A stretch of DNA of 64,000 nt. Source: a virus. The position numbers were made by a program, and so were the translations under genes. This document shows positions 1 through 31,465 of this stretch, piece by piece. The stretch covers positions 32,001-96,000 of IMG/VR virus record IMGVR_UViG_3300031772_000003; one strand, 5' to 3'. The stretch's first letter is position 1. Each line of letters begins with the position of its first letter. The notes beneath the pieces were generated by a model, which worked only from the letters and a program-made list of their open reading frames with translations, did not search any database and was not told the origin of the DNA.

Positions 1-162
1 CAGAGCATACTTTAGCTGCTCCACATCCATATCGGCCTCATGGCCAGCCCGCGCAAGTCCTGTGATGCGGTTGCAGTCGACGCAGTTATGTCCACACACA
101 TAGGTAATATCGATCTCAAGGCGGTGGGGGTTAAGCCAAGCCTGCGTAGAGTATGGAATCAT
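1..162 (-). CDS. Radical SAM protein, N-terminal fragment (runs off the window edge; absent from the ORF track)
   Basis: Hand translation from ATG at 162 gives MIPYSTQAWLNPHRLEIDITYVCGHNCVDCNRITG..., with CxxxCxxC preceded by the typical EIDIT strand. The start overlaps the upstream glycosyltransferase stop (ATGA). Confidence 0.8.
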   Translation of the reverse strand, partial: MIPYSTQAWLNPHRLEIDITYVCGHNCVDCNRITGLARAGHEADMDVEQLKYAL

Positions 163-1220
163 TGTAAGACTCCCAACCACGCGGTCCGAAACACATCCAA
201 TCCCATCTCCCGCATCGCTTTAGCTCTGGCAGCCTGCCCCATGGCTACACGCTCCTTTGGGTTATCCCGCAGCCACTTGAGCCTATCTATGAATTGCTGT
301 CGGTCACCATATGGTACGAGGAAGCCCGTTATCCCGTCCTCGACTTGCTCCACGTTGCCTCCGCGGGCCTCAGAGACCACGGGGATGGCCGCGGCCATCA
401 TCTCAGCTATCGCCAGGGAATAACCCTCCACGAAATGCTCTGCATTCCTGTAAATCGCGCAGTCCATCTGCTGTAAATAGCCAAACCTGGCCGTGATCGA
501 TGGGGGTACGAAGGAGACCTTGCCTAGAAGCCCCCTGGCCCTGAACTGTTCTTTGGGGGTATCTCCCACAATGATCCCCCGAGTGGCCGTTGATATGACA
601 GACTCGAATATCTCTGCGAGGTCACTGGGGTACTTCTCGGGCAGATCACTGCCGTAACGTCCAATGACGCATGACCCGAGCCGTGCAGGATCATCCTGGG
701 CAAGCTTAGTGGCTGTGATTGAGCCCACATCGACACAGCCATGTATGAGCGTTGCTTTGTCCCGAAGGGGGGGCGGGAGGGTCTGCAGTCCCGCAGCACA
801 GACACAAACATGGTTGTGCATGCCAGCTACCCAACCCGGCCTGGGGTTGTGGTAAACCGCTGTGTACTTGGGCCCAGGAGTAGAAAGCCTTGATGGGATA
901 CGGCTCAAGTCGTTCCACGCATGGTTGACTACGGCATCGGGCCGAAGACTCGCCACATGAGCACAGACACAGTGGTCCCTGGCTTGGTACACCTTAGCTC
1001 CTGCTTGAAGCAGGGCTTGGCGCATGGTCTCATCGGTCCAGTTGCTGTCGATGATGATATGGTGGTCCCACTCATAGAGTGCCCTTACCATGTGGGCGAC
1101 GTAACTCTCGGCTCCACCGATGACTAGGAATTGAAGGTAATGGAGGCAGATACCACCGGTTCCCCGTTGAGTGGAGCGCTCCCGCCACGATTCATCCCAT
1201 TGGGGCCAGGGGGCATTCAC
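159..1220 (-). CDS. Glycosyltransferase, GT-B fold (GT4-like)
   Basis: N-terminal GGAE motif; C-terminal EGYSLAIAEMMAAAIPVV...GGNVEQVEDGITGFLV signature. Confidence 0.9.
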   Translation of the reverse strand: MNAPWPQWDESWRERSTQRGTGGICLHYLQFLVIGGAESYVAHMVRALYEWDHHIIIDSNWTDETMRQALLQAGAKVYQARDHCVCAHVASLRPDAVVNHAWNDLSRIPSRLSTPGPKYTAVYHNPRPGWVAGMHNHVCVCAAGLQTLPPPLRDKATLIHGCVDVGSITATKLAQDDPARLGSCVIGRYGSDLPEKYPSDLAEIFESVISTATRGIIVGDTPKEQFRARGLLGKVSFVPPSITARFGYLQQMDCAIYRNAEHFVEGYSLAIAEMMAAAIPVVSEARGGNVEQVEDGITGFLVPYGDRQQFIDRLKWLRDNPKERVAMGQAARAKAMREMGLDVFRTAWLGVLQ

Positions 1221-3395
1221 CTACCATCTCCTCGCAGTCTCGGCATACCAACTCCCCATTTCCACATCCAAGACAAAATCGAAATACTTGAGGTACTGTG
1301 GGATCACGGCGTCGATGGAGTAGAGCCTGATGGCCCGCTCTCGTATGTAGATGGGGTCAAGCTCGGGGACATGGAGGAGGGCGTAACTGAACTCCGACAT
1401 GGTACGGCACCGGAAACCGGTCTTGCCGGGCTCGACTACCTCACTGAAGCTCCCCCAGTCTGTGGATATTACCGGCACCCCTGCCATTTGGCTCTCCGCA
1501 GCCACGAGACAGAACGGTTCCTGGTAGATTGATGGGGTGAAAACAGCGATGGCATTTGCGATCACCTTAGCTTTTTCTGCCCCTACGAGCCCATCATGGT
1601 ATGCCCTAAGCTTAACTTTGTGCTTGTCACAGACCTGTTGGGCAATGTACTCGCCTTTATCGACGTTGTTGCGCCCAATGAACAGGGCGTAATCCCCGGT
1701 TTTGTGTTCCGCTGGTGGGTAGTCACTGGGATCGAGGAAGTGGGGAATCACGGTGTCGAACCACTTGTAGCGCTCCGTTCGTCCGGGGTCTGTGGCATAA
1801 AGGATGGTCTGCTGGGCATAGCTTGGAAAGACCTTGTACGTGGCCCAGACCGAGGGGTAACCGGCCAGCACCTCGATGATAGGTGGCATGGCATAGGAGT
1901 GGACCCCTGCATGGGCCCAACCGTAAGTGGACGCCGCGATCTGCCGCCAGTTTTGGGCGTGGCTTACACCCATTGCGAACGCCGCGGAAAGCCGCTTGGT
2001 GTACTCCTCATGCCATTCATTGTTCCATGCCCATGTGCTTGCTGTTGGCAATCCGAGGCTCACGAATTGCCCCCCCTCCGGCACTTTAGATCCCTCAATG
2101 CCGTAGTAGGAGTAGGGAACGTGGGCGCGGGAGAGGAGGCGGCAGAACAGGGCGGCGCAAGCAAGTTGGGCGTCACTGGGGGCCGCCAGGATGTCCAGTG
2201 GAAGCGTAGGGTGCCCAAAAACATGGACGGATAGTGGAGGGGTTGCGGTTAGATGTGTAGTTACGGATATGCTACCCGAGATTTCACTTCTGCCTCCTTG
2301 CTGGTACGCAATGGGGGGTTGGGTTGCATATTTCTCTACTCCCACAAGCCTGCACAAACAAGCATCGTTGATGGCTCTGGGCTGGGCCTCCTCCCATTCC
2401 CGCAGCACGGCCTCGTATGCTCCCTGGAACACGATGTAGGCAATACCACCCATAAAGCCCTGCCCCTTGATGAGATGGGTGGAATACTGCTGCTGATTGC
2501 CGCGATTGAAACCACCGAGGTAAAGCAGACCAGCCGTTGCTGGGGCCTCTGCGAGGGCCTGGGGGATTACGGCCACGGCCTCTGGGGTGAAAGCCGCGTC
2601 GTCCTCCAACACCAGGACCGCGGGGTATCCTCGGCGCTGAGCTTCACGGACGACCCCGATGTGGGAGAGCAAACAACCGTACATCCCAGCCCTGGTTGCT
2701 CCACCCTGCCGGGGTGGATCGAAGCCAGAGGGTACATCGGCATCCTCGATGATGATGCCTGGGAAGCGCTCCAAGGTGAGGAGCGGCCCTACGGTATCTC
2801 GAACCCTGGCTAGGAAGGAATCTTTACGGTCGGGGCTGCGAGCAAGATTGATGTAGAACGCTGGTAGGGGACATCGGACCCCACACTTCGGCAGCTTCCC
2901 ATGAGGATAAAGCCAGATGAGCGAATTGCGGCGCTCAAACTGCAGGCCAGTCTCGGTGACGGTCTTTATAACCCCCACGAACCCTAAGATGTAATCATGG
3001 AATACAGCAACGCCACCGGGGGCCACAAGCGCCGTCCACCTCTCGTAGTCGGCTTTGCAGGCAGCATAGTGGTGGTCGGCATCGATGAGAAGGAGGGCAA
3101 TCGGCCCTGTGGGAAGCGGAACTTCCTGAGTCTTGCCGCAAAGTGCTTGGATATTGTGGTAGGGGGCCGTGGTGTCTTGGAACTCCATGAGTTGGTTGGG
3201 TCTCTCTATATTATCAAATGTGTCCACTGCGATGATGATGCGCTCAGGGGCGGTCTGGGCCAGCATGACCGTGGTTCGCCCAAGGAAGCAACCCAACTCC
3301 ACGATGCACCCTGGGATGTCCTTTACCCCCTCCACGAGTTGGAGAAGTTGCTCGATCTCATCGGGGGCCAAGCTCCACATCACGTCATCTGCCAC
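1221..3395 (-). CDS. Three-domain protein: class I SAM methyltransferase + GT25-like + GT4-like glycosyltransferase
   Basis: VELGCFLGRT, IDADHHY and VFHDY (Methyltransf_24-like); YINLARSPDRK...GCLLSH...LVLEDDA (GT25); EPFCLVAAESQMAGVPVISTDWG (GT4). Confidence 0.85.
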   Translation of the reverse strand: MADDVMWSLAPDEIEQLLQLVEGVKDIPGCIVELGCFLGRTTVMLAQTAPERIIIAVDTFDNIERPNQLMEFQDTTAPYHNIQALCGKTQEVPLPTGPIALLLIDADHHYAACKADYERWTALVAPGGVAVFHDYILGFVGVIKTVTETGLQFERRNSLIWLYPHGKLPKCGVRCPLPAFYINLARSPDRKDSFLARVRDTVGPLLTLERFPGIIIEDADVPSGFDPPRQGGATRAGMYGCLLSHIGVVREAQRRGYPAVLVLEDDAAFTPEAVAVIPQALAEAPATAGLLYLGGFNRGNQQQYSTHLIKGQGFMGGIAYIVFQGAYEAVLREWEEAQPRAINDACLCRLVGVEKYATQPPIAYQQGGRSEISGSISVTTHLTATPPLSVHVFGHPTLPLDILAAPSDAQLACAALFCRLLSRAHVPYSYYGIEGSKVPEGGQFVSLGLPTASTWAWNNEWHEEYTKRLSAAFAMGVSHAQNWRQIAASTYGWAHAGVHSYAMPPIIEVLAGYPSVWATYKVFPSYAQQTILYATDPGRTERYKWFDTVIPHFLDPSDYPPAEHKTGDYALFIGRNNVDKGEYIAQQVCDKHKVKLRAYHDGLVGAEKAKVIANAIAVFTPSIYQEPFCLVAAESQMAGVPVISTDWGSFSEVVEPGKTGFRCRTMSEFSYALLHVPELDPIYIRERAIRLYSIDAVIPQYLKYFDFVLDVEMGSWYAETARRW

Positions 3396-3433
3396 GACAT
3401 GTCTCCTCTACATTCCCTCTAACAGTCGTTGCC

Positions 3434-5053
3434 TCACTTGGCACCATGTTCTCGGAACGAAGCCCAAAAGTCCAAGTAACGCTGGGCCTCTTTGGGTGTG
3501 TATTCTACAAACCTGCCCTCTGCTCCCAAACGGACGCCGCAGAGAAGAACAAGTAGGGCTGGCCGGCTTGCGGCTGCGCCCCACGCGAGAGTGATCTCGC
3601 CTCCACGGACTTCACACCCTGGGATTCCGTCACACCACTCCGTAGGCTGGACACTCACGACTCGGATCGTCCCAGGCACACATGCTTCTACGAAGAGAGG
3701 GTCAATGGCTGCCCGCACCGAACCGCTCGGGACCGTCATGACCTCCATGAACCGCGACTCCGGCATCTCCATAGGGGTCAAAGCGCGCAACCGCCCACCG
3801 AGCCGCATTACATAAGGACCCTTATCACCCTTTGGACCACTAGGCCCGGATGGGCCGGATGGACCGGAGGGTCCGCTAGGACCCGAGGGTCCTGACAAAC
3901 CGGAGGGTCCGCTGGGACCCGATGGGCCGGATGGACCGGAGGGTCCGCTAGGACCCGAGGGTCCTGACAAACCGGAGGGTCCGCTAGGACCCGAGGGTCC
4001 TGACAAACCGGAGGGTCCGCTAGGACCCGAAGGCCCGGATGGACCCTCGGGTCCTGACAAACCGGAGGGTCCGCTAGGACCCTCCGGCCCGGCTGGGCCG
4101 GATGGGCCGGGTGGCCCAACCTGCTTCCCTACCGCCTCGCAGCTTATTTGGCATGTCTGCGCTTGGCAGGCCCATACTTGGCATGCGTTCTCACAGGCAA
4201 AAGTGCATGATGCGGCTTGGCATGCGGCTTCGCACACGGCTTGGCATCGGATGATGCACTGGGTCTGGCACGTCTGCTCCACTATGGTCTGACAGACCAA
4301 CTGGCAGAATGCACCCTCGCAACCCAACTGACAGTATCCCTGGCAGTTGGCTTGGCATGCAGTAATACAATCGATGGTCACGGCTAGGGTAGTGAGGATT
4401 GGCCCATGTGTGTCGGTGAAGCTGCCCGAGACAGAACTGCCCAACAGCGTCTCGGTCGGGACCGGGATCGTCGTCGGCAACTCGCTAAGCCACTGCCAGC
4501 ACCGCAGAATGACGTGGATGGGCCGGACCGATTCGATGGCCGTGACTTTTTCCCTGGCATCGGCGACGGGCAGGTACGCGGGGAGGCCCGCGACCATCCT
4601 GTAAAGATCGAAACGGGCGGCGCGCAGTGTATGGGCGTAGTCCAGAGTGCGGGAGTAGTCCCCATCCTCGTGGAGCGTAGTCTTGTAGAGTTCCCATGCC
4701 TTGATGCGGTCGTTGAGGCTCCACAAGAACGTCTTGTCCCAGGAGGGGTGCGTCCCCTTGATCTTGTAGAAGTAGGTCACGTTCTTGAGGAACCAGCGGC
4801 GGAAATCCTCCGCCTTCTCACTACCTGTGAGGGCTCCGATGAGGTAGGAGAGGTAGAGGATGTACTTGGCATCGCAGTAGTCGGGGTCGAAACACTTGAG
4901 CAGGAGTTGGCCGATCTCTGTGTTTGTAGTCTCAAACTCGGTCTGGATCGCGTCGAGGACGCGCTCCAGGTTGCCGGTTTCCCCAAAGCCGCCAGCCGCA
5001 AATTTGTCTCTGGCACGGATCACTTCAGGCAAAAGGCGATATAGACTAACCAC
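3434..5053 (-). CDS. Baseplate wedge/tail protein (P2 gpI-like N-terminus) with CXXX repeat, collagen-like region and C-terminal domain
   Basis: LYRLLPE..R..D, FDPD.C...YL.YL...G, YKIKGT and RPIHV motifs; located downstream of baseplate J; 18-Cys repeat; about 34 Gly-X-Y triplets. Confidence 0.75.
3812..4117 (-). repeat. Collagen-like (Gly-Pro-Ser)n coding repeat, about 34 triplets
   Basis: [21 protein letters not shown]...GPKGDKGPY, with near-identical nucleotide blocks such as gggtcctgacaaaccggagggtccgctaggaccc. Confidence 0.95.
4139..4369 (-). repeat. CXXX cysteine repeat (18 Cys in 77 aa)
   Basis: [26 protein letters not shown]...[10 protein letters not shown]. Confidence 0.95.
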
Positions 5054-5071
5054 GACTCTGTACCCCTACAG

Positions 5072-6022
5072 TTACGGAAATACGGGCGTGGTTTGGGTCA
5101 TTTTTTGACATGTGAGTTGACACGATTGGTTACACGTAGAAGTGCAGGACGCTTCGCACCCAGTCATACACCCCCCGGGGGCTCCGGTGCATGCGATTTG
5201 GCACGATACGGTGCAAGCACCCGTGGTGCAGGAGATCATGCAATAATTCGTGCAATTCCCCTGACATGAACACTGACAGAACCCCACGCAGGTCGTCGTG
5301 ATCTCCAAGCCACGGGCCCCACAAGCATCGGGGAACACGGGATCGAACCAGATACCGGCGTCGTTGGGGCTGGTGGCCGTGTCCACGAACGAGCCGCTCA
5401 CGCTCTGTATATCCAGGGGATCGCCGGCGTAATCCGTGTCCGAGGGGACGGGCACCGTAGTCGTAGGGACCTCCGTGGTTCCACCAGGCTTCCGGATGAG
5501 GACGTGGATGGGCCTGAAGGGCTCGGCCACGCCTCCAACGTCCACGCCCTGGTCCCCAGTGGTCATGCTGGGGGTACGGACATCGACCCTGGCCGCCTTT
5601 ATGGTGTGGGCGTAATCGGTGTAGAGCGAGTAGTCGCTCTCCTCATGCAGCTTGGTCTTCCAGAGTTCCCAGGGGAAGTGGTTGATGAAGCCGTGGCACC
5701 TGAGCATCGCCTCCCAGGACGGGCGAGTGGCCTTGATGTGCCACAACAACCCGATAGTCTTGAGGAAGACTCGGCGCTTCGCCGTGGACCAAGTCTTGCT
5801 CGTGCCGAGCCCGAGCAGCTGGCCCATCAAGGCAATGTAGGTGGGGTCAACGGTATCAGGGTCGCGTAAGGTCTTAAGATCCGTGATCTCGGTGGTTGTG
5901 GCTTCTAGTTCCTGCTCCAGCGACTCCACGATCTTCTGGAGTGTACCGATGCTCTCCCCACCCCGCGCCGCGGCGTCGTAGGTCCTCACGACCTCGGGCA
6001 GGAGCCGGTAGAGACCTAACAC
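5072..6022 (-). CDS. Second P2 gpI-like baseplate wedge paralogue with C-terminal CXXX repeat
   Basis: Paralogous to 3434-5053 ([27 protein letters not shown]...DYAHT..AAR, RPIHV, VSGSF.DT); 16 Cys at 5108-5290. Confidence 0.75.
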   Translation of the reverse strand: MLGLYRLLPEVVRTYDAAARGGESIGTLQKIVESLEQELEATTTEITDLKTLRDPDTVDPTYIALMGQLLGLGTSKTWSTAKRRVFLKTIGLLWHIKATRPSWEAMLRCHGFINHFPWELWKTKLHEESDYSLYTDYAHTIKAARVDVRTPSMTTGDQGVDVGGVAEPFRPIHVLIRKPGGTTEVPTTTVPVPSDTDYAGDPLDIQSVSGSFVDTATSPNDAGIWFDPVFPDACGARGLEITTTCVGFCQCSCQGNCTNYCMISCTTGACTVSCQIACTGAPGGCMTGCEASCTSTCNQSCQLTCQKMTQTTPVFP

Positions 6023-6031
6023 GAGCGGCTC

Positions 6032-8686
6032 CTACGTTGCAGCGGCGATGGTGGTAACGGCGATGGTGCCGGGGACCAGAAGCTGATCGGGGCCCAGTGG
6101 CACGTCCTCCGATGGGGTGCGGAGCAACTGCCTGTAGGTGCTGTAGATTTTCGTTCCCGCGGCGGGCACGACGGCGAAGGTGAACTTATAGGCCCCTGTA
6201 TCGTAGTTGATGTAATTCGTACCCGGGGCTACGTCCCCGATCAAGACGCCGTAGCCGTCGTCCACGACGGTTTGCGAGCCCGTCGTGAAGGCGATGCCAC
6301 CAATGGCCAGGATGTCATCGTGGGGGACGATGGGTGGGAACTTGACGGAGCCCTCGACCTCACCCGTGGTCCCATCCATGACTGCCTCCTGCCCGCCCCG
6401 CTGGTAATCGATGAGGTGGCGGAACTCCGCGTTGACCGTTTCGCCCAGCGCTGGGGCACCCGAGAACGTCACATCCACGGCACCCGTCTCGTAATCGATG
6501 GTGTTGGCCCCAGCGGGATCGACGCTCCCGACCAGGAGGCCGTCGCCGTCATCAATGACTACCAAGGTCCCAGCGTCGATCCTCACGGTTCCGGGGATGA
6601 TCGTGAGGTAACGGGTGATGGGGGGGGTGAATGGGAAATTAGTGGCCACGCCGTCACCCGTGGCCACGGTGGACTCAGTTTTGACCGAGGCGGTCATGAC
6701 GTTGATCAATCCATGAGCGACGCCGGCGCTGTCCTGAATCGCGTTGTAGGCCCTGGACAGGTGGAAGTCATCGCCGGGCTCGTAGTCATCGAGCAGGTTC
6801 CTGACTGCCACAGCGACGTTAGTGGAAACCTCGGTGGCGGCGAAGTCGCTCATCAACTGGACCTCGATGCTGAGATCGAGGTAGACGATGATGCCGTCGA
6901 CCACCTCTACGTCGGTACAAATGACCCGGATCGCGCCCTGTCCGTTGTTCATGAAGTAGTTGTACAGCGCGGCCTTGAGGCCCGCGGACGGAGCCACGAT
7001 GGCTCCGGCGTAATCACGGGCCCAAATCGCGGCGCAAACCATATTGTACTCCGGGACCTCCTGCTTCAACCAGCACGACACGAATGCAGGGGCCCCGTAC
7101 ACGGGGTCGCGGAACGCATTGGCCAGGGCATTGAAGTCCGCCCGGGTCACGGCCCTGCCGTTGGCACTGACCCACGGCGGAATCCAGCGGCGGGCATGCT
7201 CTAGGGTCTCCCGGTCGAGCCCGCCGCTGCCCGGCTCCTCGTTCAGGAGATCCATTGGGATCGCCTGGGGCGGCGCGACGCCGTCGAGCCAGCCCGTGAC
7301 CGCGGTGTCGATGGCCCCGATGGGGACGTTGCCGACGAGACCGCCGCCTACACGGTAGGACACGGTGATCGCGGCCCCGTTGGGAGGCAGAGCACCACAA
7401 TCGCCGTCCCCGAATTGGATGTAGCCGTAGTCGTCGTCGTCATAGTCAATGGCGTAGACCTTAGCGGTCCCGTCGCTATAGATCAGCGACTCCACTTCGG
7501 TCCAGTCCACCCCCGCAACCCTTACGACCAGCGAGCCGTCTACGACCTCGGGCACGGTGAGCTTGAACTTCTGCCACGCCGCTCCATCGGAGGTGAAAGC
7601 ATCGGCCTGATCGAGACCCTCCACAAAGGTCAGTAAGGCCGTGAGGTCACCTGCGGGTATCCGCTGGTCCACGACGGTACGGAACGTCACGTCCCCCGTG
7701 GCTGATACCGTGGTGCCGCTGGGCAAAATCGTGTCGTTGGTCTGGACCGACCCGATCGTGGCCTTCACGCGCACTGCCGCCGCTGAGGCGGGCCGGAGCT
7801 TATACCCGACGAGCTTGCCGAGATTGACGATGCTCTCGCGGTGCTGCAATGTGGGGAGGAAGCCTTCGTTGGCGGTGTAGTCGAGGAAATAGCTTAACTG
7901 ATCTGTGCAGTTGTGCAGGAAACACCCCACCGAGAGGCCAAAGTTATGGGGCCCCTCAAGGATGCTGATGTCATATACATCCTCACGCTCTTGGAGTGCC
8001 CGCACAGAAACGATTTTGTGGTTAGCTTGGGCGAGTCGGGCCTTCACAGTGTCCTTCGAGCAAGACAACTGCCGGCTGATCTCTGGAACCGACAGTCCCT
8101 CCTGGCGAAGCCTGATCACGTCTGCTGGCAGGTGGTGGACAATTTCAGACCTCTCCCCAGGAGCGCAGAGGTTATGGGTTCCGACCCACCGCCCTGTTGC
8201 AGGGTTCTTGGTCTGTTCATAACCACGACCAGACTGCCGCCGGTACAGGGGCATCAGGCTGTCCCCCTGCTGAAGTTCGCAGGCTGGTTTATAGGTGCTG
8301 TCACGCATGAGCCACAGGTGGTTAGGTGTGCAGCGGACAGACTTCCCATTGTCAAGAGTGACCTCGACAAGTTCTGCGTCCTGCCGCGTTAGTTTGGCCT
8401 CCGCCAAAGCAGGGACGATATTCTGGCTTTGCTCATCTGCGGCATAGACCCAGAATGGCTCTCGACCTACTAGGTCCTTGATCTCTGCCTCTGCCCCATC
8501 AAGCAGAGGAATCTTTGTCTCCCCTACTACGCAATAGGCAGTGAGCTCTAGCAACGCCATGCCGATGCTGGAGGCGTACAGATCCTGCCAATCACTCGGG
8601 AACCGCGCCTTGATGTGGGAGATGAGCAGGGCCCGAATCGTTGAATAGTCCCTACCCGTGTAGTTGATCGCTGGCAATTGTGCCAT
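6032..8686 (-). CDS. Baseplate wedge protein (baseplate J / T4 gp6-like), intein-containing
   Basis: NYTGRDY...ELTAY/.DQLSYFLD..ANE.FL.T, YIQFGDG..G..P, YRVGGG..GNV, GG.DRET and RAVT..DF motifs; follows the gp25-like gene. Confidence 0.9.
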   Translation of the reverse strand: MAQLPAINYTGRDYSTIRALLISHIKARFPSDWQDLYASSIGMALLELTAYCVVGETKIPLLDGAEAEIKDLVGREPFWVYAADEQSQNIVPALAEAKLTRQDAELVEVTLDNGKSVRCTPNHLWLMRDSTYKPACELQQGDSLMPLYRRQSGRGYEQTKNPATGRWVGTHNLCAPGERSEIVHHLPADVIRLRQEGLSVPEISRQLSCSKDTVKARLAQANHKIVSVRALQEREDVYDISILEGPHNFGLSVGCFLHNCTDQLSYFLDYTANEGFLPTLQHRESIVNLGKLVGYKLRPASAAAVRVKATIGSVQTNDTILPSGTTVSATGDVTFRTVVDQRIPAGDLTALLTFVEGLDQADAFTSDGAAWQKFKLTVPEVVDGSLVVRVAGVDWTEVESLIYSDGTAKVYAIDYDDDDYGYIQFGDGDCGALPPNGAAITVSYRVGGGLVGNVPIGAIDTAVTGWLDGVAPPQAIPMDLLNEEPGSGGLDRETLEHARRWIPPWVSANGRAVTRADFNALANAFRDPVYGAPAFVSCWLKQEVPEYNMVCAAIWARDYAGAIVAPSAGLKAALYNYFMNNGQGAIRVICTDVEVVDGIIVYLDLSIEVQLMSDFAATEVSTNVAVAVRNLLDDYEPGDDFHLSRAYNAIQDSAGVAHGLINVMTASVKTESTVATGDGVATNFPFTPPITRYLTIIPGTVRIDAGTLVVIDDGDGLLVGSVDPAGANTIDYETGAVDVTFSGAPALGETVNAEFRHLIDYQRGGQEAVMDGTTGEVEGSVKFPPIVPHDDILAIGGIAFTTGSQTVVDDGYGVLIGDVAPGTNYINYDTGAYKFTFAVVPAAGTKIYSTYRQLLRTPSEDVPLGPDQLLVPGTIAVTTIAAAT
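7910..8533 (-). mobile_element. Intein (208 aa) with a degenerate homing-endonuclease/HTH insert
   Basis: Starts CVVGETKIPLLDG (block A); CTPNHLWL (block B TxxH); EDVYDISI...HNF (block F); ends FLHN followed by +1 Cys. Excision restores ELTAY-CTDQLSYFLD. Confidence 0.92.
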
Positions 8687-9114
8687 CAGGGTGTTCCTCC
8701 TTGCGCGTAGTAGCTGGGGCTCAACGCGATGTCCACGACATCCACCGCGTCTGCCATTGGGTCCTTCACGTTCTTCGTGATGACTTGGATGTTGAGTTGG
8801 TCCCCATCCCTGACGGCCTTCAGGTCGACAAAGGCGATCCGGGGATCGGGCACGTCGTACTCGTTGGTCTCGTAGGTCATTATGGCCTGCTGGACCTCCG
8901 TGCGCGCCGCCGCAACGAGCCGGGCGTCGTTGGGCTCATGGACCATGTCCGGAAGCGACGTGCCGAAGTCCGGCCTCATGCGGCGCTCGCGCTTCCGGGT
9001 CAGCAAGATCCAGAAGACGCTGCTGCGCAGTACCTCTTTGTCGTCTTTGGATGAGACGAGGGTCTGGACCGCGGGGCCCCACGGCAACGACATGCCGCAC
9101 CATATTCGAGGCAT
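8686..9114 (-). CDS. Baseplate wedge subunit, GPW/gp25 family
   Basis: ILLTRKRERRMRPDFGTSL...EP...PRI signature. Confidence 0.9.
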   Translation of the reverse strand: MPRIWCGMSLPWGPAVQTLVSSKDDKEVLRSSVFWILLTRKRERRMRPDFGTSLPDMVHEPNDARLVAAARTEVQQAIMTYETNEYDVPDPRIAFVDLKAVRDGDQLNIQVITKNVKDPMADAVDVVDIALSPSYYAQGGTP

Positions 9115-22657: not shown

Positions 22658-22813
22658 TGCAGTCTCCTTTCAAGCCGCGTGCGGTGCGGCGTAATGGGCC
22701 GGGGCAGAGGATGGCCCGCGGAGCATCCCTTTGTGGGCCGGGCCTTTGGCAGTGTGCCAACCGCGCATTCCCCACCCCTATTCGTTTCACCACTGGGTGA
22801 AGTCCATGTTCCA

Positions 22814-23536
22814 CTACTTAGGTGGCTCCGGCAGCGCCTCATGCTGCTCCTCGGTCAAGCCATGCTTGGCGTAGAGGTGGCCGATGAGGCCGTTGGTGTT
22901 CTTGAACCGCTTCTCCACGCCCTGCTGGGCGCAGACTTTACATAGGGGGAGATTCGCGGGCATTGTGGCTGGGATGACCGCCCCCATGCTTGGTGTCGGC
23001 ACCTGCTCGAAGGCAGGGGCTTGCGGAGGAGCGCTGGGGGCAGGAGGTGTGGGTGGTGCAGCCGCCACAACGCGCGGCGGCACCGAGACGTGGTTGGGGT
23101 GGGCCCGGGCGACATGAGCGTCATGGAGGGCCAATTGGCCTGTTCGGTGGATCTGGCAGACCCGGCAAATGTAGATCCCGCGCCTTCGTTCGTAGGTGTC
23201 GGTTTCTTCCTCGATGGGAGCGAGGGGCTGGGAGGGTGGAGGGCGAGCTACTGGGGGGCTCGCTCTTGGTTGTACCGGGGCCGTGGGGCGGGGTGGTGAG
23301 GGTGCGGGGTGAGTGGTGCTGCGGGGCGCGAGGTAATGAGGCGGCAACATCGGCTGCGCGGGGACCGGTGGAGTTCCGGGTCGATCCGGCACCACGACTC
23401 GGCTCAAGAAATCGGGCCCGACGTGGCGGCTCCACCACGGATCGGGAGAATAGCCCCCGGGTGGGAACGCCACTTGTGCCCCCGCCCTGCTCAGGAATAA
23501 GGGGTGGGGATGAAGGTTCTGGTAAATGACGGCCAT
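22814..23536 (-). CDS. Pro-rich protein with two C2H2-type zinc fingers
   Basis: YICRVC...HVARAH and CKVC...FKNTNGLIGHLYAKH; GAGGAGG RBS. Confidence 0.7.
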   Translation of the reverse strand: MAVIYQNLHPHPLFLSRAGAQVAFPPGGYSPDPWWSRHVGPDFLSRVVVPDRPGTPPVPAQPMLPPHYLAPRSTTHPAPSPPRPTAPVQPRASPPVARPPPSQPLAPIEEETDTYERRRGIYICRVCQIHRTGQLALHDAHVARAHPNHVSVPPRVVAAAPPTPPAPSAPPQAPAFEQVPTPSMGAVIPATMPANLPLCKVCAQQGVEKRFKNTNGLIGHLYAKHGLTEEQHEALPEPPK

Positions 23537-23580
23537 TGCGTCCTCCTCGTTGTCGAGATACCTCCGGCACTCATGTGCAA

Positions 23581-23614
23581 GCGGGACGCCCAGGACTCGG
23601 CCTGAGCGTCCCGC
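23581..23614 (-). terminator. GC-rich stem-loop downstream of the major capsid gene (terminator or processing signal)
   Basis: gcgggacgc-ccagg...cctga-gcgtcccgc inverted repeat; only a weak U-tract. Confidence 0.5.
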
Positions 23615-23617
23615 CTG

Positions 23618-23681
23618 GGTGCTACTCCAAAGTAGCGGTGCTACTCCAAAGTAGTGGTGCTACTCCAAAGTAGCGGTGCTA
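23618..23681. repeat. 19-bp tandem repeat x3.3, each unit internally palindromic
   Basis: ggtGCTACTccaaAGTAGC units at 23618, 23637 (one mismatch) and 23656. Confidence 0.9.
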
Positions 23682-23734
23682 TGCCACGAACGCGGGTCTA
23701 TGTACCTGAGCGGCGATTCTCGTCAAGCCCCTGC

Positions 23735-25201
23735 TCATGGTATGAAGGCCCCACCGGTTTGGATCACGATGCCGCGGATGTACATGTTGGCGTTGACGGG
23801 CTTCCTCGCGGCCCTGTACGCCATGCCCTTGCGGGCCAGAAGGTCATCGAGGATCACGGTGTTCGTGATGTACAGGGGCAGATAGGGGGCCCAAATGTAG
23901 CCGGTATCATTGAAGCCGCTGCCCTTGTAGCCCATCAAGAACTCGTTGCGGCTCGTCTCGCCGCCGTCGTTGCCGAAGCTGGGATCGCGGTAGATCGTCA
24001 GGTCCTCGACGGTGCCGATCTTGCGGACACCGGCCTCGTTGGAGGCACCGGCACCGCTCGACTTGAACCTGTTGAGGGTCTGGAGGATCTCGCAGAACCC
24101 AGGCCCGCCGACGACCCAGTTGGGCGTGACGCGCTGCGTCCGCTCATTGACGGCGATCTGGCCCTGAACCAGTGCGTCGTAGAGGCTTTCCTTGTGCCAA
24201 ATCCACGGCACGCCAAGCGGGGGAGTGCGGTCCCACGAGATGAGGCCGCTGGCCGCGATGGTCCGGAGGTGGCGGATGATCTCGTAGTTGACTTCCTTGG
24301 CGATCTCATTTCTCATGAAACTGACCGCCTCCATCTCCAACTTGAGGCCGTGGTACGCCTCGAAATCCTGGGCCGCTTCGATGCTGTACCTGCAACGCAG
24401 AGCCCATTTCCTGGCGGTCAGGGCCGCCGTGGTCATCTGGAGATCGATCTCGGGGGTATTGGCTTGGCCCTCGGAATTGAACTCGTAGTTGGCCACGACC
24501 GCGGTGCCCGCGTCAGGGGCGGTGGCGAACAGGAGGTCGTAGGCACCGGTCGCATAGTCAACGGTGTTGACCCCGAGGGGATCGACGGAGCCGATGAGGT
24601 GGCCATTGCCGTCATCCACGACTCTCCGGGTGCCGTCCCCGATGACGACGGTGGTGCCCCTCACCGGAACCAGGGCGAGGTTGCCGGTGAAGTGCGTTGC
24701 GGCACCGGTCCCGACCCCCCGCGGCTCATCCTTCACGCGCTCGCCGGTGTAGGTATACTCGGTCGAGGGGCCGCGCCGCACGTCGGACATCTTCGTGCCG
24801 CGCTGAATGCGGCCCTTGGTCGTGCCGTAGATGGGCTCGAAGAAGAACACGAGGCCGGTCGGGGCGTCGAGGGCTTGGACCGTCACCAACTCGGCGGCGA
24901 CGAGGTTGGCCATGTAAGCCCTGATGATCGGGAAGACGAACTTCTCGAAGCTGCCGACGCTGACGCTCGAAGTCGCCTCCTTGAGCTTGCGGATGTGACG
25001 CAGCGTGTTCTCGTACAAGCGTGCGAGATTGCAGCGCTTGTCCTCGTCCGCGATGCCCGCCAAGCAGTCGAGGATCTCGTCTCGGGCCTTGATGTCCCTG
25101 CCGGGCCGTTTCTTCCACGACTCCACGAGTTGGAAATCGGCGGCCCGCCGAGCCTCCCAACCCGCTTGAATATCGAGAATCGGGTTGTCCAGAGCGTCCA
25201 T
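23735..25201 (-). CDS. Major capsid protein (T4 gp23-like)
   Basis: FPIIR....LVA.ELVTVQ.L.APTGLVFF, ARK.ALR..YSIEAAQD..AYHGL..E.E......EIA.EVN.EII, GYKGS...DTGYIWAPY.PL; LKE/A maturation site near the N-terminus. Confidence 0.95.
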   Translation of the reverse strand: MDALDNPILDIQAGWEARRAADFQLVESWKKRPGRDIKARDEILDCLAGIADEDKRCNLARLYENTLRHIRKLKEATSSVSVGSFEKFVFPIIRAYMANLVAAELVTVQALDAPTGLVFFFEPIYGTTKGRIQRGTKMSDVRRGPSTEYTYTGERVKDEPRGVGTGAATHFTGNLALVPVRGTTVVIGDGTRRVVDDGNGHLIGSVDPLGVNTVDYATGAYDLLFATAPDAGTAVVANYEFNSEGQANTPEIDLQMTTAALTARKWALRCRYSIEAAQDFEAYHGLKLEMEAVSFMRNEIAKEVNYEIIRHLRTIAASGLISWDRTPPLGVPWIWHKESLYDALVQGQIAVNERTQRVTPNWVVGGPGFCEILQTLNRFKSSGAGASNEAGVRKIGTVEDLTIYRDPSFGNDGGETSRNEFLMGYKGSGFNDTGYIWAPYLPLYITNTVILDDLLARKGMAYRAARKPVNANMYIRGIVIQTGGAFIP

Positions 25202-25334
25202 GAAAGAACCTCCAGTGGTGCTGCTCCGGGGCAGCTACGTTTGACAGATCGTATCCGATCCGCTACGTCCATCCGCCGAAGGTCCTCCCCCAATGGGGGG
25301 AAGCTCCACAGGACTGACGCCTACGGAATCTCAC

Positions 25335-26861
25335 TCACTTGCCTTCGAGGCTAGACATGGCCTCCATGAGGGTCGGCACCCTGGCGGGCTTCACCTCTTC
25401 CACGACGGTCTTCGGCCCCTCTTTGGGGGCCTCCTTGGGATCAACGGCCTCCTTGATCGGCTTGGGGGCCGGCTTCGGGTCCGCTACGGGGGCGGGCTCG
25501 GGTGTCTCGGTGGGGGCCGGTGCCTCGTCTTCCATGAGCCTGGCCCGCAGCGCCCGCAGGAGGCGCAGCGACTCCGCGTACTTCGCCTCGGCGAGCCGAG
25601 CCCTCCGCTGCCACTTCACAGCGTCGGTGCGGAAATCCTCCGCGACGCGCTTCAGAGTGTCATAACGCTTCCCGCCCGCTCTGGCCTTGAGCTCATCGTT
25701 CTCGGCCTTGAGGGCCGCGACGCGCTCCGCAAGATGCACGGCGACCTCCGCGCCTGTTGCCGTCCCTGCCATTGCCGATCTCCTTGTCTCAGATTTGTGA
25801 CCGTCACCTACACTATACGCGCGAGCCTTGGAGCTCGGTTCCGGGGCTTTCGCTTCTACAAGCTTGGGGGCGGGGGGCTGTTTCGACTCCTTCGTCGGCT
25901 CTGCTTCCGCAGCCTCCTTCTCTTTGTGGGTCTTAGCGGCCTTATCCTCCTCCGGTTCTTTCTTGCCGCCGCCCACGAGGTCCGAGACTTTGCCGGCGAC
26001 GACCTTGCCGAGGGCCAGCAAACCCCCCCGCAGCTTCGAGCCATTGGGGCTATTGTCCGCGCCCAATCTGTCGAGAATGGTCATGACGCGGCTCAGAAGA
26101 TCGGCGAGAGGCCCAGCGGCCTTGCCGGTGTTGATCACGTCCTCAAGCTCGCGCACCAGGGCCTCAGCGGCGGTCACGGTCTCGGGGTCGACACCGTTGC
26201 CGCCTGGAGGCAGGGATCGCTCTTCAGGGGTTGGGGGCTCACCCGCGATCTCGATACCGCCCGCGGCGGGGATCTCACCGGCCTGCTCGCGGAGCCTATG
26301 GAGCGCTGCCATGACCGACTGGTCCGTCACGTAATCCCAAGTGGTGAGTTGGAAGTCGTCCTTCACGTCCTCGCAACCGTCGCCGCCGGGCATCGTTTCG
26401 CCGTCACCCCGTGAAGAGCATCCTACAGCGCATCCGCACCTGAGAAACTCCTCCAGCGTCAAGCCCTCATGGGTACGGAATACCAGGATGTCGCCCACGA
26501 CATAGTCACCGGGCTCGACCCCGGATTTGTGGCCGGGACCAACTGCCTCGATATGCACGGCCTCGATGAGGTGGCTGCCCTTGGAGAGGTCAGAGGTCCC
26601 GCTCGCGGGATGCTCCAACTGGCCAATGACGCGGCGCTCCGCGAGCCGACGCATAAAGGGGCTATCGGCCTTGAAGTTGTTCTCCCATACGCTGCGGCCA
26701 TAGCGCCGCTTATTGGCGTTGGGCTTGCCCACGGCTTGGAGGATCTGGTTCTTGAGCCGGAGCCTGGGAACGCCGTCGCCGAAGGCGGAGCGATCCCACT
26801 CCATCTGGACCGGCTTAGCGAAGAATGGGGCAGTACGCTCGGTAATTATTCCGCGTGGCAT
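25335..26861 (-). CDS. Prohead protease (T4 gp21-like) fused to a scaffold-like C-terminal region; start revised to ATG 26861
   Basis: N.N.R.Y, GQLEHP, SH.I, VGCSSRGDG and FQL.TWDYV.D.S motifs, then charged and coiled-coil segments; GGAGG RBS. Confidence 0.88.
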   Translation of the reverse strand: MPRGIITERTAPFFAKPVQMEWDRSAFGDGVPRLRLKNQILQAVGKPNANKRRYGRSVWENNFKADSPFMRRLAERRVIGQLEHPASGTSDLSKGSHLIEAVHIEAVGPGHKSGVEPGDYVVGDILVFRTHEGLTLEEFLRCGCAVGCSSRGDGETMPGGDGCEDVKDDFQLTTWDYVTDQSVMAALHRLREQAGEIPAAGGIEIAGEPPTPEERSLPPGGNGVDPETVTAAEALVRELEDVINTGKAAGPLADLLSRVMTILDRLGADNSPNGSKLRGGLLALGKVVAGKVSDLVGGGKKEPEEDKAAKTHKEKEAAEAEPTKESKQPPAPKLVEAKAPEPSSKARAYSVGDGHKSETRRSAMAGTATGAEVAVHLAERVAALKAENDELKARAGGKRYDTLKRVAEDFRTDAVKWQRRARLAEAKYAESLRLLRALRARLMEDEAPAPTETPEPAPVADPKPAPKPIKEAVDPKEAPKEGPKTVVEEVKPARVPTLMEAMSSLEGK

Positions 26862-27111
26862 TCGGCAGGTCCTCCGGTGAGATCCACTCGTGCGTATGCT
26901 CCTGGGGATCATACGCCACGGTGTAGAAGTTCCAAACATAGTCTACTGTGAAACCGGGATCGACGTTTCCAAGACTCCACAGCCAAGCCACGAGATCGTC
27001 GGGCACAAGGTCGTAGCTCGACCCGTCGGGGAGCCAGACCGTGATGGCCCTGCCGCCGTGCCTACGGGTGAGGTACAGCGTCCCCGACAGCGCCACGTCT
27101 CGGGGCGGCAT
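26815..27111 (-). CDS. Hypothetical protein (C-terminal part of the 26815-27480 track ORF)
   Basis: Protein-like composition from MPPRDVALSG onward; overlaps both neighbours by about 50 nt. Confidence 0.4.
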   Translation of the reverse strand: MPPRDVALSGTLYLTRRHGGRAITVWLPDGSSYDLVPDDLVAWLWSLGNVDPGFTVDYVWNFYTVAYDPQEHTHEWISPEDLPNATRNNYRAYCPILR

Positions 27112-27823
27112 GATCGGGATCGGTGCCAAAGACCGCCTCCTCGTACAAGGCTGTGAGAGCCGCGGCTTCATCCACCCTTCCCATCTTCGGCTCCCTGCAC
27201 TTGGGGCACACCGGGGTCTGGCCGATTGGAGCGAGGACGGTGGTGCCGCAGTTGGGGCAGACCCACCGCTTCTGATTCGATACCGCATTGGCGTTGGGTA
27301 TGGGTGCGACCTCGGCCACAGCGGCCTCACAGAGAGCCTCCGGGGGCATGCCTGCGAGGAGCAGATCGAACGATTCGAGGCCAAGCCGCTTCTTGACGAC
27401 GCCCATGATGTAGGCCCACTTATCCCCAACCTTGGCCTTCTTCTGTGCAGGCAGGCCATCGTACCGTTTCGCCGTCTCATCCCAATACCGCTTCACCACG
27501 GGCAGGGACTTACCCGCATCCTTGGCGAGGCTGCGGACGTTGGCGGGGGGGCTGAGGCCCTTGCGCTTCTTCTTGGCTTCACTGGGCCCAGCAGGCTCTA
27601 GTTCCCTATCGAGGGCGGAGCAGCGCCAATCCACCCCATTGAGTACCACATCGACACAGTTGAAATTGCCCCCACGTCCTCTGACTGGGGGTACATCGAC
27701 CGCTCCTATGATACCTGCCATACCCGCAGGGAGAATCACGGATGGCCGCCCCGCGTACCCAGAGTAGTAGGGTACACGATCTATTCGCAGCCGAACGCGA
27801 TCTCCGACTCTGAACTTACTCAT
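27062..27823 (-). CDS. Modular putative head protein (SH3-like + helical + Zn ribbon); start revised to ATG 27823
   Basis: KFRVGDRVR; SLAKDAGKSL..VKRYW...WAYIMGVVKKRLGLES; CPNC...CPKC; GAGGAA RBS. Confidence 0.6.
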   Translation of the reverse strand: MSKFRVGDRVRLRIDRVPYYSGYAGRPSVILPAGMAGIIGAVDVPPVRGRGGNFNCVDVVLNGVDWRCSALDRELEPAGPSEAKKKRKGLSPPANVRSLAKDAGKSLPVVKRYWDETAKRYDGLPAQKKAKVGDKWAYIMGVVKKRLGLESFDLLLAGMPPEALCEAAVAEVAPIPNANAVSNQKRWVCPNCGTTVLAPIGQTPVCPKCREPKMGRVDEAAALTALYEEAVFGTDPDHAAPRRGAVGDAVPHP

Positions 27824-27830
27824 TCGTTCC

Positions 27831-28223
27831 TCACGACCCCACAATACCTTCGCGGGGGTGTTCGGGGTACTGGACACGGGTGATCCATACGTTCCCCGTT
27901 GCCTCCGCGGGGGTGCCGGGCATGGCGGTTCCCGTTGCCACCTCAATGCCTACGTACTTCCGGGCCGAGGTGGTGAGAATGGCTACGCGGGCATGCCCCA
28001 CAAGCGTCATTTGGAGCAGACCTGATGCGGCAGTTGTGGAGAATGGTAGGTCATCCCATGTCCCCGTTGCTCCCGTGTCACTATCGCCAAGGGCGAATGT
28101 GACAGGCGTAGCGTCTTTGTTCTGAATGAACAGGGCGACCCCACTGACATCGAATGGGTAGTCATAAGGCCAGATGTAGTCACCATGGACGTGGATGAGT
28201 TCACGAGAAGTTGGCAGATTCAT
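27831..28223 (-). CDS. Hypothetical beta-rich protein (intact copy B2)
   Basis: Clean ORF; N-terminal 46 aa are duplicated at 29036-29200. Confidence 0.65.
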   Translation of the reverse strand: MNLPTSRELIHVHGDYIWPYDYPFDVSGVALFIQNKDATPVTFALGDSDTGATGTWDDLPFSTTAASGLLQMTLVGHARVAILTTSARKYVGIEVATGTAMPGTPAEATGNVWITRVQYPEHPREGIVGS

Positions 28224-28231
28224 CGGTTACC

Positions 28232-29023
28232 TCACTGTTCGTAAGTATTAGACCAAAGCTCCTGTCCATCAGGACCGGAGACTCGAATGAGCGCACTGGA
28301 CCCATCCTCTGAGCCGATGACATCAATCTCAAGGCAGTCCGCCACACCACCCCTATCACGGGCTTTCACCCGAATAGTCATCTGTCCCGACCTGCTTCTA
28401 GGTCCTGTAGCAGCCTTACGCTGCCCATCTACGTCTACAGTGACCCAAGCTGGGCGGACAAACTGGATTTCTGTGAGAGGCTCTTGTTCATCAAGCCCCG
28501 TCTCTTGATCCTTATCTGTCACCCTGAGCATAGGGGGGCGTTTGATACAGAGGACATGATCAACGGCTTCTTCGATAGGGTCATGACGCATTGACATTCC
28601 CTCTTTGGGTTTTCTACCGAACGGGTGAATGAAGTCCCTACTGGCGGGGCAGGGGATGTCACTTGCATGGTACTTGGCGTGCGGGGGTGCCATGCCCCAC
28701 TTATTGAGGTGGATCGTCTGCCCGCACTCCGGGCACTTGATCCATTCCCCGTCAGCGCTCCGGCGCTCCATGGCTTCTTCGATGGGGTCTTTACGGCTTT
28801 GCATTGGACTAGACTCCCCGACACCACGGCGTCTCCCTGCCTTACTGGGGCGGGAGAACACGAGTAAGTCCGGCGACGACTGCTCTATTTTCCACCCCGC
28901 TGCTTGGAGCCGCTCCGCTTCATCGAAGCCCTGTGACGTTCGGAGGTCAACCCTGCGATACTCGTAATCGCCGGGCATCCTGGGATAGCTGGGGTCCATT
29001 TCTTCAATTGGGTCACGAGGCAT
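28232..29023 (-). CDS. Putative internal head protein with three DPIEE modules (copy A2)
   Basis: RDPIEEMD, KDPIEEAME, HDPIEEAVD; C-terminal domain paralogous to 29197-29538. Confidence 0.6.
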   Translation of the reverse strand: MPRDPIEEMDPSYPRMPGDYEYRRVDLRTSQGFDEAERLQAAGWKIEQSSPDLLVFSRPSKAGRRRGVGESSPMQSRKDPIEEAMERRSADGEWIKCPECGQTIHLNKWGMAPPHAKYHASDIPCPASRDFIHPFGRKPKEGMSMRHDPIEEAVDHVLCIKRPPMLRVTDKDQETGLDEQEPLTEIQFVRPAWVTVDVDGQRKAATGPRSRSGQMTIRVKARDRGGVADCLEIDVIGSEDGSSALIRVSGPDGQELWSNTYEQ

Positions 29024-29035
29024 CCGAAAGACTCC

Positions 29036-29200
29036 CTAATCAAAGTACTTACTAACCACATTGCCAAGAGCGAAGGTGACGGGAGTAGCATCCTTGTTCT
29101 GAATGAACAAGGCAACCCCACTGGCATCGAATGGATAATCATAAGGCCAGATGTGGCTGCCGTGGACGTGGACTTGATCACGAAGGGTTGGCTGGTTCAT
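29036..29200 (-). pseudogene. Truncated/chimeric copy (B1) of the 27831-28223 gene
   Basis: HVHG..IWPYDYPFD.SGVALFIQNKDATPVTFALG followed abruptly by NVVSKYFD stop. Confidence 0.65.
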
Positions 29201-29538
29201 TGCTCGTAAGTCTCCGACCAAATGACATTGTTGTCGGGCCCGACGACTTGGACCTCGGTCGTCTCCCTGTCGGCGTTGACGAAGACGTTGAGGCACTGCT
29301 CGATCTGGCCGCGGTTGCGGACCTGAAGACTGATGCCCATTTCGCCCTCGCGCCCTCCGGGACCCGTGGCGCATCTTTGGACCCCATCGGCGACGACGGT
29401 AACCCATGCGGGCCTCACCGCCTCGTCAAGTGGCCCAAGTCCCGTCTCCTGATCCCCCTCACGGACACGGAGCATGTGGGGGCTTCGGATACCCAGCACA
29501 CGGTCAACGGCTTCCTCAATCCAGTCACGCTTTGACAT
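29197..29538 (-). CDS. Putative internal head protein (copy A1)
   Basis: MSKRDWIEEAVDRVL...DQETGL...VRPAWVTV...WSETYEQ. Confidence 0.65.
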   Translation of the reverse strand: MSKRDWIEEAVDRVLGIRSPHMLRVREGDQETGLGPLDEAVRPAWVTVVADGVQRCATGPGGREGEMGISLQVRNRGQIEQCLNVFVNADRETTEVQVVGPDNNVIWSETYEQ

Positions 29539-29556
29539 TGCTCTCTCTCTCTTCGG

Positions 29557-31455: not shown

Positions 31456-31465
31456 CAGCAAACTC

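Follow-up and report, generated by a model that had tools for sequence, protein, structure and literature searches.

We analysed a 64,000-nt stretch of viral DNA, hereafter the window, which covers bases 32001-96000 of the 163,716-bp IMG/VR virus record IMGVR_UViG_3300031772_000003 (estimated to be 92% complete) and encodes two paralogous gpI-like baseplate wedge proteins, each with a tract in which Cys recurs at about every fourth residue. These tracts are probably substrates of a phage-encoded, CteB/PapB-like radical S-adenosylmethionine (SAM)/SPASM enzyme and probably become stapled by thioether links. The evidence comprises the anatomy of the tracts, the family of the enzyme and the linkage of the two genes across phages. 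The 16 kb to the left of the window were fetched as L002, in which a position equals the window position plus 16000, and G000 denotes the whole record. The features that carry the argument are listed below.

Positions 5072-6022, minus strand: gpI-like wedge paralogue 1, 316 aa, with an N-terminal P2-gpI-like domain and a C-terminal Cys tract.
Positions 5108-5290, minus strand: Cys tract 1, 16 Cys, mostly 4 apart, residues 245-305 of the 316-aa protein.
Positions 3434-5053, minus strand: gpI-like wedge paralogue 2, 539 aa, with a gpI-like domain, a Cys tract, a collagen-like (GPS)n stalk and a C-terminal domain of ~125 aa.
Positions 4139-4369, minus strand: Cys tract 2, 18 Cys, residues 229-305 of the 539-aa protein.
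L002 7684-10272 (G000 23684-26272), minus strand: large radical SAM/SPASM enzyme, an 862-aa open reading frame (ORF) interrupted by an intein, recognized by profile matches and Cys motifs.
L002 6746-7879 (G000 22746-23879), minus strand: GT9 glycosyltransferase, Pfam Glyco_transf_9 at 37.2 bits (cut-off 22).

The positions of the two tracts, their 18 and 16 Cys and the paralogy of the wedge proteins had been given in a first-pass annotation made from the letters, and translations and BLASTP confirmed them exactly: the 316-aa and 539-aa proteins align with an E-value of 2e-50 and 36% identity over ~300 residues, including the tract. E, Q or T directly follows Cys in 11 of the 16 units of tract 1 and in 15 of the 18 units of tract 2, where successive Cys are spaced 4, 4, 4, 4, 5, 4, 8, 4, 4, 4, 4, 5, 4, 4, 5, 5 and 4 residues apart. 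Neither tract is a tandem repeat at the DNA level, with only a 38-nt trace of 12-nt period inside one of them, whereas the collagen-like part of the 539-aa protein is a true DNA repeat; the periodicity of the tracts is therefore maintained at the protein level. The same detection rule found no further Cys tract elsewhere in the 163.7-kb genome. Among 31 distinct tract proteins, the Cys spacing equals 4 in 744 of 860 intervals, and the residue after Cys is E in 51%, Q in 28% and T in 13% of cases. The resulting C-[E/Q/T]-x-x unit mostly has T, V, S or A at its third position and G, T, A or S at its fourth. The largest tract, in locus L016, is a 648-residue open frame that consists almost entirely of C-E-x-x and holds 126 Cys.

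Two further features of the tract proteins were noted. Adjoining an orthologous enzyme at L022:1448-3664 are ~70 units that nearly all read C-T-x-G, with Thr in place of Glu/Gln, which offer a natural test of the residue after Cys as acceptor. Ahead of the first tract Cys there is usually a beta-strand-like alternating segment (~35 proteins; D-T-L-x-I-x-x-x-C or R-L-P-x-x-A-G-C), found at 4370-4400 and 5291-5320 in the window; the segment may serve the beta-only N-terminal domain of the enzyme described below as a recognition site within the protein, or may be a junction element.

The gene of the large enzyme lies 5.7 to 8.3 kb left of the window, in the same gene string as the tract genes. 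Its 862-aa ORF matched the NCBIfam models of QhpD (1.5e-47), a nif11-type maturase (5.9e-44), the SCIFF maturase (2.3e-41) and PapB (2.3e-36), and its motifs run in the order CX3CX2C (C-C-L-S-C-L-Y-C), CX12GX4C, HNH intein, CX2CX5CX3C and last Cys. The intein starts with C-F-A-G-D-T, ends with V-H-N, has Cys as its +1 residue and sits exactly ahead of the GX4C cluster-ligand Cys of the SPASM domain. Aligned with its orthologues, the enzyme probably begins at Met50. Related phages encode orthologues with 34-39% identity to it, and that of L003 (L003:12891-15290) carries a different, LAGLIDADG-type intein at the third Cys of CX3CX2C. All ten cluster Cys, three of the radical SAM site (C81, C85, C88) and seven of the SPASM domain, are invariant in 15 orthologues; the Pfam SPASM model scored 20.2 bits on the large enzyme, with a cut-off of 21.5.

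By both profile and fold, the nearest structure is that of CteB. A profile of the orthologues matched CteB (5wgg) with an E-value of 6e-78 over nearly its full length, followed by TigE (1e-39) and anSME (5e-28). An AlphaFold2 model of the intein-free L008 orthologue (predicted local distance difference test score, pLDDT, 80) aligned with CteB at Z 35.2 over 393 residues, the SPASM region included; scores against ChlB and anSME were at most Z 29.5, with anSME at 28.8. PapB was the best NCBIfam model for the L008 enzyme (4.7e-54, compared with 4e-28 for anSME). This enzyme is encoded at L008:15607-17130, and its predicted substrate at L008:9905-10975. The first ~60 residues were modelled as a beta-only mini-domain of five short strands and no helices (pLDDT 74-92), and the alignment to CteB begins at chain residue 1, the N-terminal domain of the phage enzyme being much shorter. 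The family is large, with more than 150 clusters at 50% identity scoring below E 1e-93, and its tree is deep (median tip branch 1.2). By its scores, which stay under the curated cut-offs given below, the large enzyme is a family of its own that is related to the PapB, SCIFF and QhpD equivalogs but lies outside them.

The relation between tract and enzyme was followed across phages in both directions. A gpI alignment retrieved only 3 loci from IMG/VR, and the searches were made from the enzyme and from baseplate J instead. Scanning IMG/VR with the enzyme alignment gave 76 loci, 26 of which have orthologues at 30% identity or more, and these 26 were searched in all frames for runs of Cys 4-5 residues apart. 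A tract protein with 5 to 126 Cys lies upstream on the same strand in 23 of the 23 loci that have ~3 kb or more of upstream sequence; the Cys-run scan accounts for 22 of them, and the short irregular tract of L034 was seen only by Cys density. In the remaining 3 loci the contig ends less than 1.2 kb upstream of the enzyme. GT9 comes after the enzyme in most of the 26 loci, and in L003 and L004 the genes are direct neighbours in the order gp25, J, gpI (18 Cys), a 593-aa protein (17 Cys), enzyme and GT9. The same order of tract and then enzyme recurs in L169 and L171, which contain family members from a wider protein library. From the other side, the scan with baseplate J gave 80 loci: tracts are present, in gpI or the gene after it, in all 7 whose J has at least 47% identity, with enzyme and GT9 wherever the contig reaches, and neither a plus-strand E/Q/T tract nor the enzyme is present in the other 73, whose J has 24-37% identity (0.94 Mb, 45 with at least 3 kb after J). 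A relative with a tract-less gpI, L005, likewise has no enzyme in the next 6 kb.

The module occurs both in myovirus-type tail modules (gp25-J-gpI) and in siphovirus-type ones, where it follows the tape-measure gene, with a small ORF in between in L018 and L024; the tail type needs at least two changes on the enzyme tree. The upstream proteins range from 324 to 2676 aa and have the tract as their sole common feature, and the gene linkage is therefore strong evidence that tract and enzyme work together. The first-pass annotation had proposed testing across phages whether wedge tracts co-occur with the small radical SAM gene that it had named; co-occurrence holds in both directions for the large SPASM enzyme but not for that gene.

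Behind more distant phage SPASM enzymes (L036-L085, 20-26% identity) there are one to four paralogues of ~200 aa, each ending in (C-T-C-N-C-N-Y)n, for example at L046:13741-16338, L043:9489-11555 and L058:14647-15276. A (C-[K/S/T]-G-T)n protein occurs in L070 and C-Q-V-x repeats in L059. By their sequences, these loci look like a second and a third flavour of the theme of an enzyme plus a Cys repeat.

The glycosyltransferase conserved with the tracts is GT9, which is fused to the enzyme in L009 and L023. The orthologue profile of GT9 matched the lipopolysaccharide (LPS) heptosyltransferase WaaC (2e-21) and TibC (1.7e-4), and the phage proteins have four invariant C-terminal Cys. GT9 is adjoined by a PfkB-family sugar kinase in L024 (12228-13229) and by a CTP_transf_like nucleotidyltransferase in L169 (9428-9874). 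HldE, the ADP-heptose enzyme, is built from domains of these two types, PfkB and CTP_transf_like, and their position beside GT9 suggests that the heptose donor is supplied by the phages themselves. GT9 probably adds heptose to the tract proteins, as a reasonable conjecture.

From these observations we infer, in the following form, what the enzyme acts on, the thioether nature of its product, the residue that accepts the link and the addition of heptose. The internal C-[E/Q/T]-x-x tract of the gpI-like proteins would be the target of the CteB/PapB-like SPASM enzyme, which, already spliced, would act in the reducing cytoplasm ahead of tail assembly. It would abstract a hydrogen from a side-chain carbon of the acceptor and join that carbon to the Cys sulfur, the likeliest acceptor being the E, Q or T after the Cys of a neighbouring repeat. 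In the reaction of CteB, the partner of Cys is a Thr side chain; in that of QhpD, it is Glu or Asp. PapB takes Asp or Glu located C-terminal to Cys as acceptor (PMC12373016). Because of these acceptors and the C-X-X-Q/D motif of the archaeal protein CrpA, the conserved E/Q/T is most simply read, by analogy, as the acceptor, and each repeat would then form a small ring, such as one from C(i) to E/Q/T(i+5). Along the tract this would yield a ladder of small, non-reducible thioether (ranthionine-type) rings. The ladder would make the stalk that connects the wedge-anchoring domain to the distal fibre, here a collagen-like stalk, more rigid, and would do away with free thiols that might form scrambled disulfides outside the cell. 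The GT9 conserved alongside would heptosylate the same proteins. We tentatively extend this to many lineages with contractile and non-contractile tails, in which parts of the baseplate, tail tip or fibre may be rods of consecutive thioether macrocycles, probably heptosylated, one protein having up to ~126 C-E-x-x units.

A different reading takes the tract as an unmodified structural element, for instance a metal-binding or disulfide ladder of a fibre neck; the SPASM-GT9 pair would act elsewhere, with a glycan, some other protein or a molecule of the host surface as target, and would simply travel in the same block of tail-accessory genes. Metals can be bound by Cys ladders, and a sugar transferase is fused to the enzyme or encoded next to it, the fusion with GT9 being also readable as two activities working jointly on a glycan; in this phage the enzyme gene is found among genes for glycosylation, ~9 kb away from the tract genes and beyond an inserted glycosylation island, and its model shows no canonical winged-helix RiPP recognition element (RRE; RiPP, peptide synthesized by ribosomes and then post-translationally modified). 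Metal binding aside, these points also weigh against stapling by this enzyme, as do several others. All curated cut-offs were missed (PapB 183.8 compared with 340 bits, SCIFF 170.1 with 425, QhpD 164.1 with 453), and the maturase model of the CXXX-repeat system, TIGR04115, scored 40.6 to 57.9 bits with a cut-off of 350. The tracts of this phage are short and Q/T-rich instead of E-rich; scored with the CXXX-repeat target model TIGR04117, as the first-pass annotation had proposed, tract 1 fell far under the cut-off (E 0.024, 14.7 bits compared with 50) and tract 2 gave no match. The enzyme encoded here, as judged by its intein, needs protein splicing for activity. Linkage within tail modules may partly reflect inherited synteny, and the siphovirus-type tract proteins are placed in the virion by gene position only, PHROG searches having returned no usable match for nine siphovirus-type or unclassified tract proteins. 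All members of the system are known from sequence and models alone. A predicted complex of the L008 enzyme with the tract end of its gpI scored 0.00 in a run without controls, with the tract folded at low confidence, and speaks neither for nor against binding.

An unmodified ladder, with the SPASM enzyme acting elsewhere, nevertheless appears unlikely to us. The enzymes nearest to it in sequence and fold without exception have Cys-containing peptides or proteins as substrates, the tract is all that the gpI-like and siphovirus-type upstream proteins share, tract and enzyme are jointly present or jointly absent in ~100 loci, and disulfides do not form in the cytoplasm, where the tail is assembled. 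Action of the SPASM enzyme on the tract by some other chemistry seems quite improbable, whether as formylglycine formation of the anSME type, sactionine (C-alpha) links, C-C links, epimerisation or links between subunits. SPASM enzymes do catalyse many reactions, anSME is a strong structural match, and the regiochemistry of PapB depends on the substrate (PMC12373016). CteB, PapB, SCIFF and QhpD, however, score far above anSME in the profile comparisons given above, which makes anSME-type formylglycine formation less likely, and a conserved E/Q/T next to every Cys fits a donor-acceptor pair. Thioether stapling of the tracts by the large enzyme is thus the reading that we retain, and the remaining alternative concerns the genes immediately downstream of the tract genes.

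Positions 1-180, minus strand: small radical SAM protein, 267 aa, of which the first 60 codons lie inside the window, with CX3CX2C at 96-73.
Positions 159-1220, minus strand: GT4 glycosyltransferase, 353 aa, by family match.
Positions 1221-3395, minus strand: Methyltransf_24-GT25-GT4 fusion, 724 aa, by Pfam domain matches.

The first-pass annotation had these genes following the tract genes, closely spaced or coupled and with CGHNCVDC of the radical SAM gene at 96-73, and this proved correct: they are on the same strand, and the distances between neighbouring genes in this series range from a 38-nt gap to a 22-nt overlap. It had further proposed that a RiPP-like substrate is fused here to structural proteins and enzymatically crosslinked, with the small radical SAM protein as the maturase. 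The concept stands, given the linkage and the CteB-like enzyme; the named enzyme does not. That the small protein matures the tracts while the Cys ladder is S-glycosylated by the neighbouring GT4 and GT25 enzymes is highly improbable and largely refuted by distribution, since the other tract-bearing loci are without small radical SAM, GT4 or GT25 genes. Nothing in the analysis, in which no test was aimed at either, points to S-glycosylation or metal loading of the Cys. The left flank showed the whole gene to span L002 15377-16180 (G000 31377-32180), crossing the left edge of the window. Its CX3CX2C lies at residues 29-36, and its relatives all share C168, C221 and C224 and mostly C185. These C-terminal Cys are consistent with an auxiliary cluster, probably a single site, as read from the sequence, without a SPASM domain, and there is no room for an RRE because the radical SAM core begins near residue 20. 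In an AlphaFold2 model (pLDDT 82), the best folds were SpeY (Z 13.5, 210 residues aligned) and BtrN (Z 12.4), with SPASM peptide enzymes at Z 11.3 or below, a small margin that indicates the type of enzyme and not its function. SpeY and BtrN are twitch small-molecule dehydrogenases. Bacterial relatives overlap or abut GT2 genes in two of the three contexts looked up, the third (homologue P0010) being uninformative as its gene lies at a contig end. For this gene, this is the outcome that the first-pass annotation had named as refuting, namely a sugar- or nucleotide-modifying clade without peptide-binding features.

No homologue of the small radical SAM protein was found in any other tract-bearing locus examined, and tblastn against INPHARED gave no match for it or for the 316-aa protein. 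As a SPASM peptide maturase it was ruled out by length, Cys pattern, fold ranking, neighbours and distribution. The 724-aa fusion matched Methyltransf_24 (E 1e-14), Glyco_transf_25 (25.7 bits, cut-off 24) and Glycos_transf_1 (E 1e-10); neither it nor the GT4 is conserved with the tracts, and homologues of both were absent from the 26 enzyme-bearing loci at E 1e-4. On this sequence evidence, we read the small radical SAM gene, the fusion and the GT4 as a separate sugar-modifying island specific to this phage, whose target may be the Ser-rich collagen stalk. Farther along, on the way from the fibre genes to the SPASM enzyme, L002:10496-14544 (G000 26496-30544) encodes DUF7873 (210 bits), two paralogues matching phrog_1581 and a sialyltransferase/MptE-like protein (phrog_4603, 4e-10). 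With the twitch radical SAM protein, the GT25 and the GT4s added, these genes make up an unusually large sugar toolkit beside the Ser-rich collagen stalk.

All genes discussed form one minus-strand string, here followed from the gp25-like protein W to GT9. Upstream of the two gpI-like genes it contains the first two features below, and the third lies within the 539-aa protein.

Positions 8686-9114, minus strand: gp25-like baseplate wedge protein W, 142 aa, Pfam GPW_gp25 at 46.2 bits.
Positions 6032-8686, minus strand: Baseplate J-like protein, 884 aa, first of the wedge gene set, Pfam Baseplate_J at 21.9 bits.
Positions 3815-4123, minus strand: collagen-like Gly-Pro-Ser repeat right behind tract 2, PF01391 at 54.2 bits (cut-off 27.2), residues 358-413.

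The order is gp25-like W, J, the 316-aa and 539-aa gpI-like proteins, the methyltransferase-GT25-GT4 fusion, GT4 and the 267-aa radical SAM protein, followed by three proteins without family, DUF7873, the sialyltransferase/MptE-like protein, the 862-aa radical SAM ORF and GT9; the gp25-J-gpI part is kept here and in related loci. The gpI-like protein of this phage reached 22.1 bits with TIGR02242 (E 1.3e-4, cut-off 51.85) and had no Pfam match. Since relatives of its N-terminal domain (37-69% identity) contain PF09684 Tail_P2_I and the genes come after those of the gp25-like and Baseplate_J proteins, the label of wedge protein is reasonable for both paralogues. The 539-aa protein also has an NCBIfam Scl-like match at residues 311-413, and PHROG tail-fibre families match its collagen part; to judge by these domains, it is in effect a fibre anchored through a wedge domain. 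The same junction is seen at L033:117-1574, where a short tract passes directly into a collagen-like Gly-X-Y repeat.

Promoter and terminator scans of two stretches gave counts at or near shuffled expectation. The sole strong terminator-like site of the gene string is a 13-bp GC-rich hairpin with a T-rich tail at L002:11361-11391 (minus strand), between DUF7873 and the next gene. The baseplate J protein holds an intein at about residues 59-259 (window 7910-8512; Pfam Intein_splicing 58 bits). Inteins occupy the most conserved sites of the SPASM enzyme of this phage, its L003 orthologue, baseplate J and an AAA ATPase (L002:1672-3633), and the 1449-aa J of L003 has intein matches at two places.

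If the tracts are stapled as proposed, radical chemistry would covalently modify phage tail proteins, for which the searched literature contains no viral example, and RiPP-type thioether stapling would reach beyond short secreted peptides to structural proteins with lengths of hundreds to thousands of residues. With full-size virion proteins as the targets of a RiPP-type enzyme, there would be a class of covalently stapled fibrous protein and a new way to stabilise a virus particle; stapling would also explain how virion proteins folded in a reducing cytoplasm come to have dozens of cysteines, and would provide a natural, genetically encoded route to redox-inert, rigid protein rods. It would also bear on annotation, in that a phage radical SAM/SPASM gene beside tail genes should not be called an antibiotic-synthesis or auxiliary metabolic gene. 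Such a reading was given to a phage radical SAM maturase gene in one recent paper on cyanophages (PMC12801897).

The searched literature contains no description of a phage system of SPASM enzyme and Cys-tract tail protein, and the comparison is therefore with cellular systems. The best sequence and fold matches of the large phage enzyme belong to PapA/PapB (freyrasin) and CteA/CteB (SCIFF, thermocellin). Ranthipeptides, like the phage tract, have repeated Cys donors a few residues from the acceptor; their substrates, however, are short leader-plus-core peptides released as products, whereas the phage tract is internal to structural proteins of 300-2700 aa, has up to 126 repeats and lacks a cleavable leader. 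In quinohemoprotein amine dehydrogenase (QhpC/QhpD), a SPASM enzyme cross-links Cys to Asp/Glu in a subunit that stays within a larger assembly, as would be the case in the phage; QhpC is a small subunit with few links, and the system differs in being a cellular redox enzyme without a repeat tract. The NCBIfam CXXX-repeat system (TIGR04115/TIGR04117) shares with the phage a Cys at every fourth residue beside a SPASM maturase, but its targets are short stand-alone bacterial proteins, and the phage proteins score far under both cut-offs. For the GT9 partner, the counterparts are the bacterial autotransporter heptosyltransferases TibC and Aah, GT9-type enzymes that glycosylate repeat-rich fibrous proteins with ADP-heptose; TibC heptosylates autotransporter repeats and, in the late part of its chain, has an iron finger with four Cys (PMC4358343). 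The four invariant C-terminal Cys of the phage GT9s have another spacing, and their profile is much nearer WaaC than TibC, the protein substrate being a conjecture in the phage case.

The closest experimental precedent is CrpA/CrpC of Methanococcus voltae (2026), in which CrpC, a SPASM enzyme modelled on CteB, furnishes CrpA, a large Cys-repeat protein from a nearby gene, with ranthionine links (PMC13692751). CrpA carries a C-X-X-Q/D motif, and its recognition involves domain-domain contacts as well, not RRE and leader only (PMC13692751). According to the same authors, validated cases with large proteins are few, and phages are unmentioned there (PMC13692751). CrpA/CrpC differs from the phage system in being archaeal and cellular, without a virion, and in its 17-residue repeat in 10 copies, compared with the strict 4-residue period of the phage tracts. 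CrpC has a predicted RRE and no GT9 partner, whereas the phage enzyme has a GT9 partner and, in its model, no canonical RRE.

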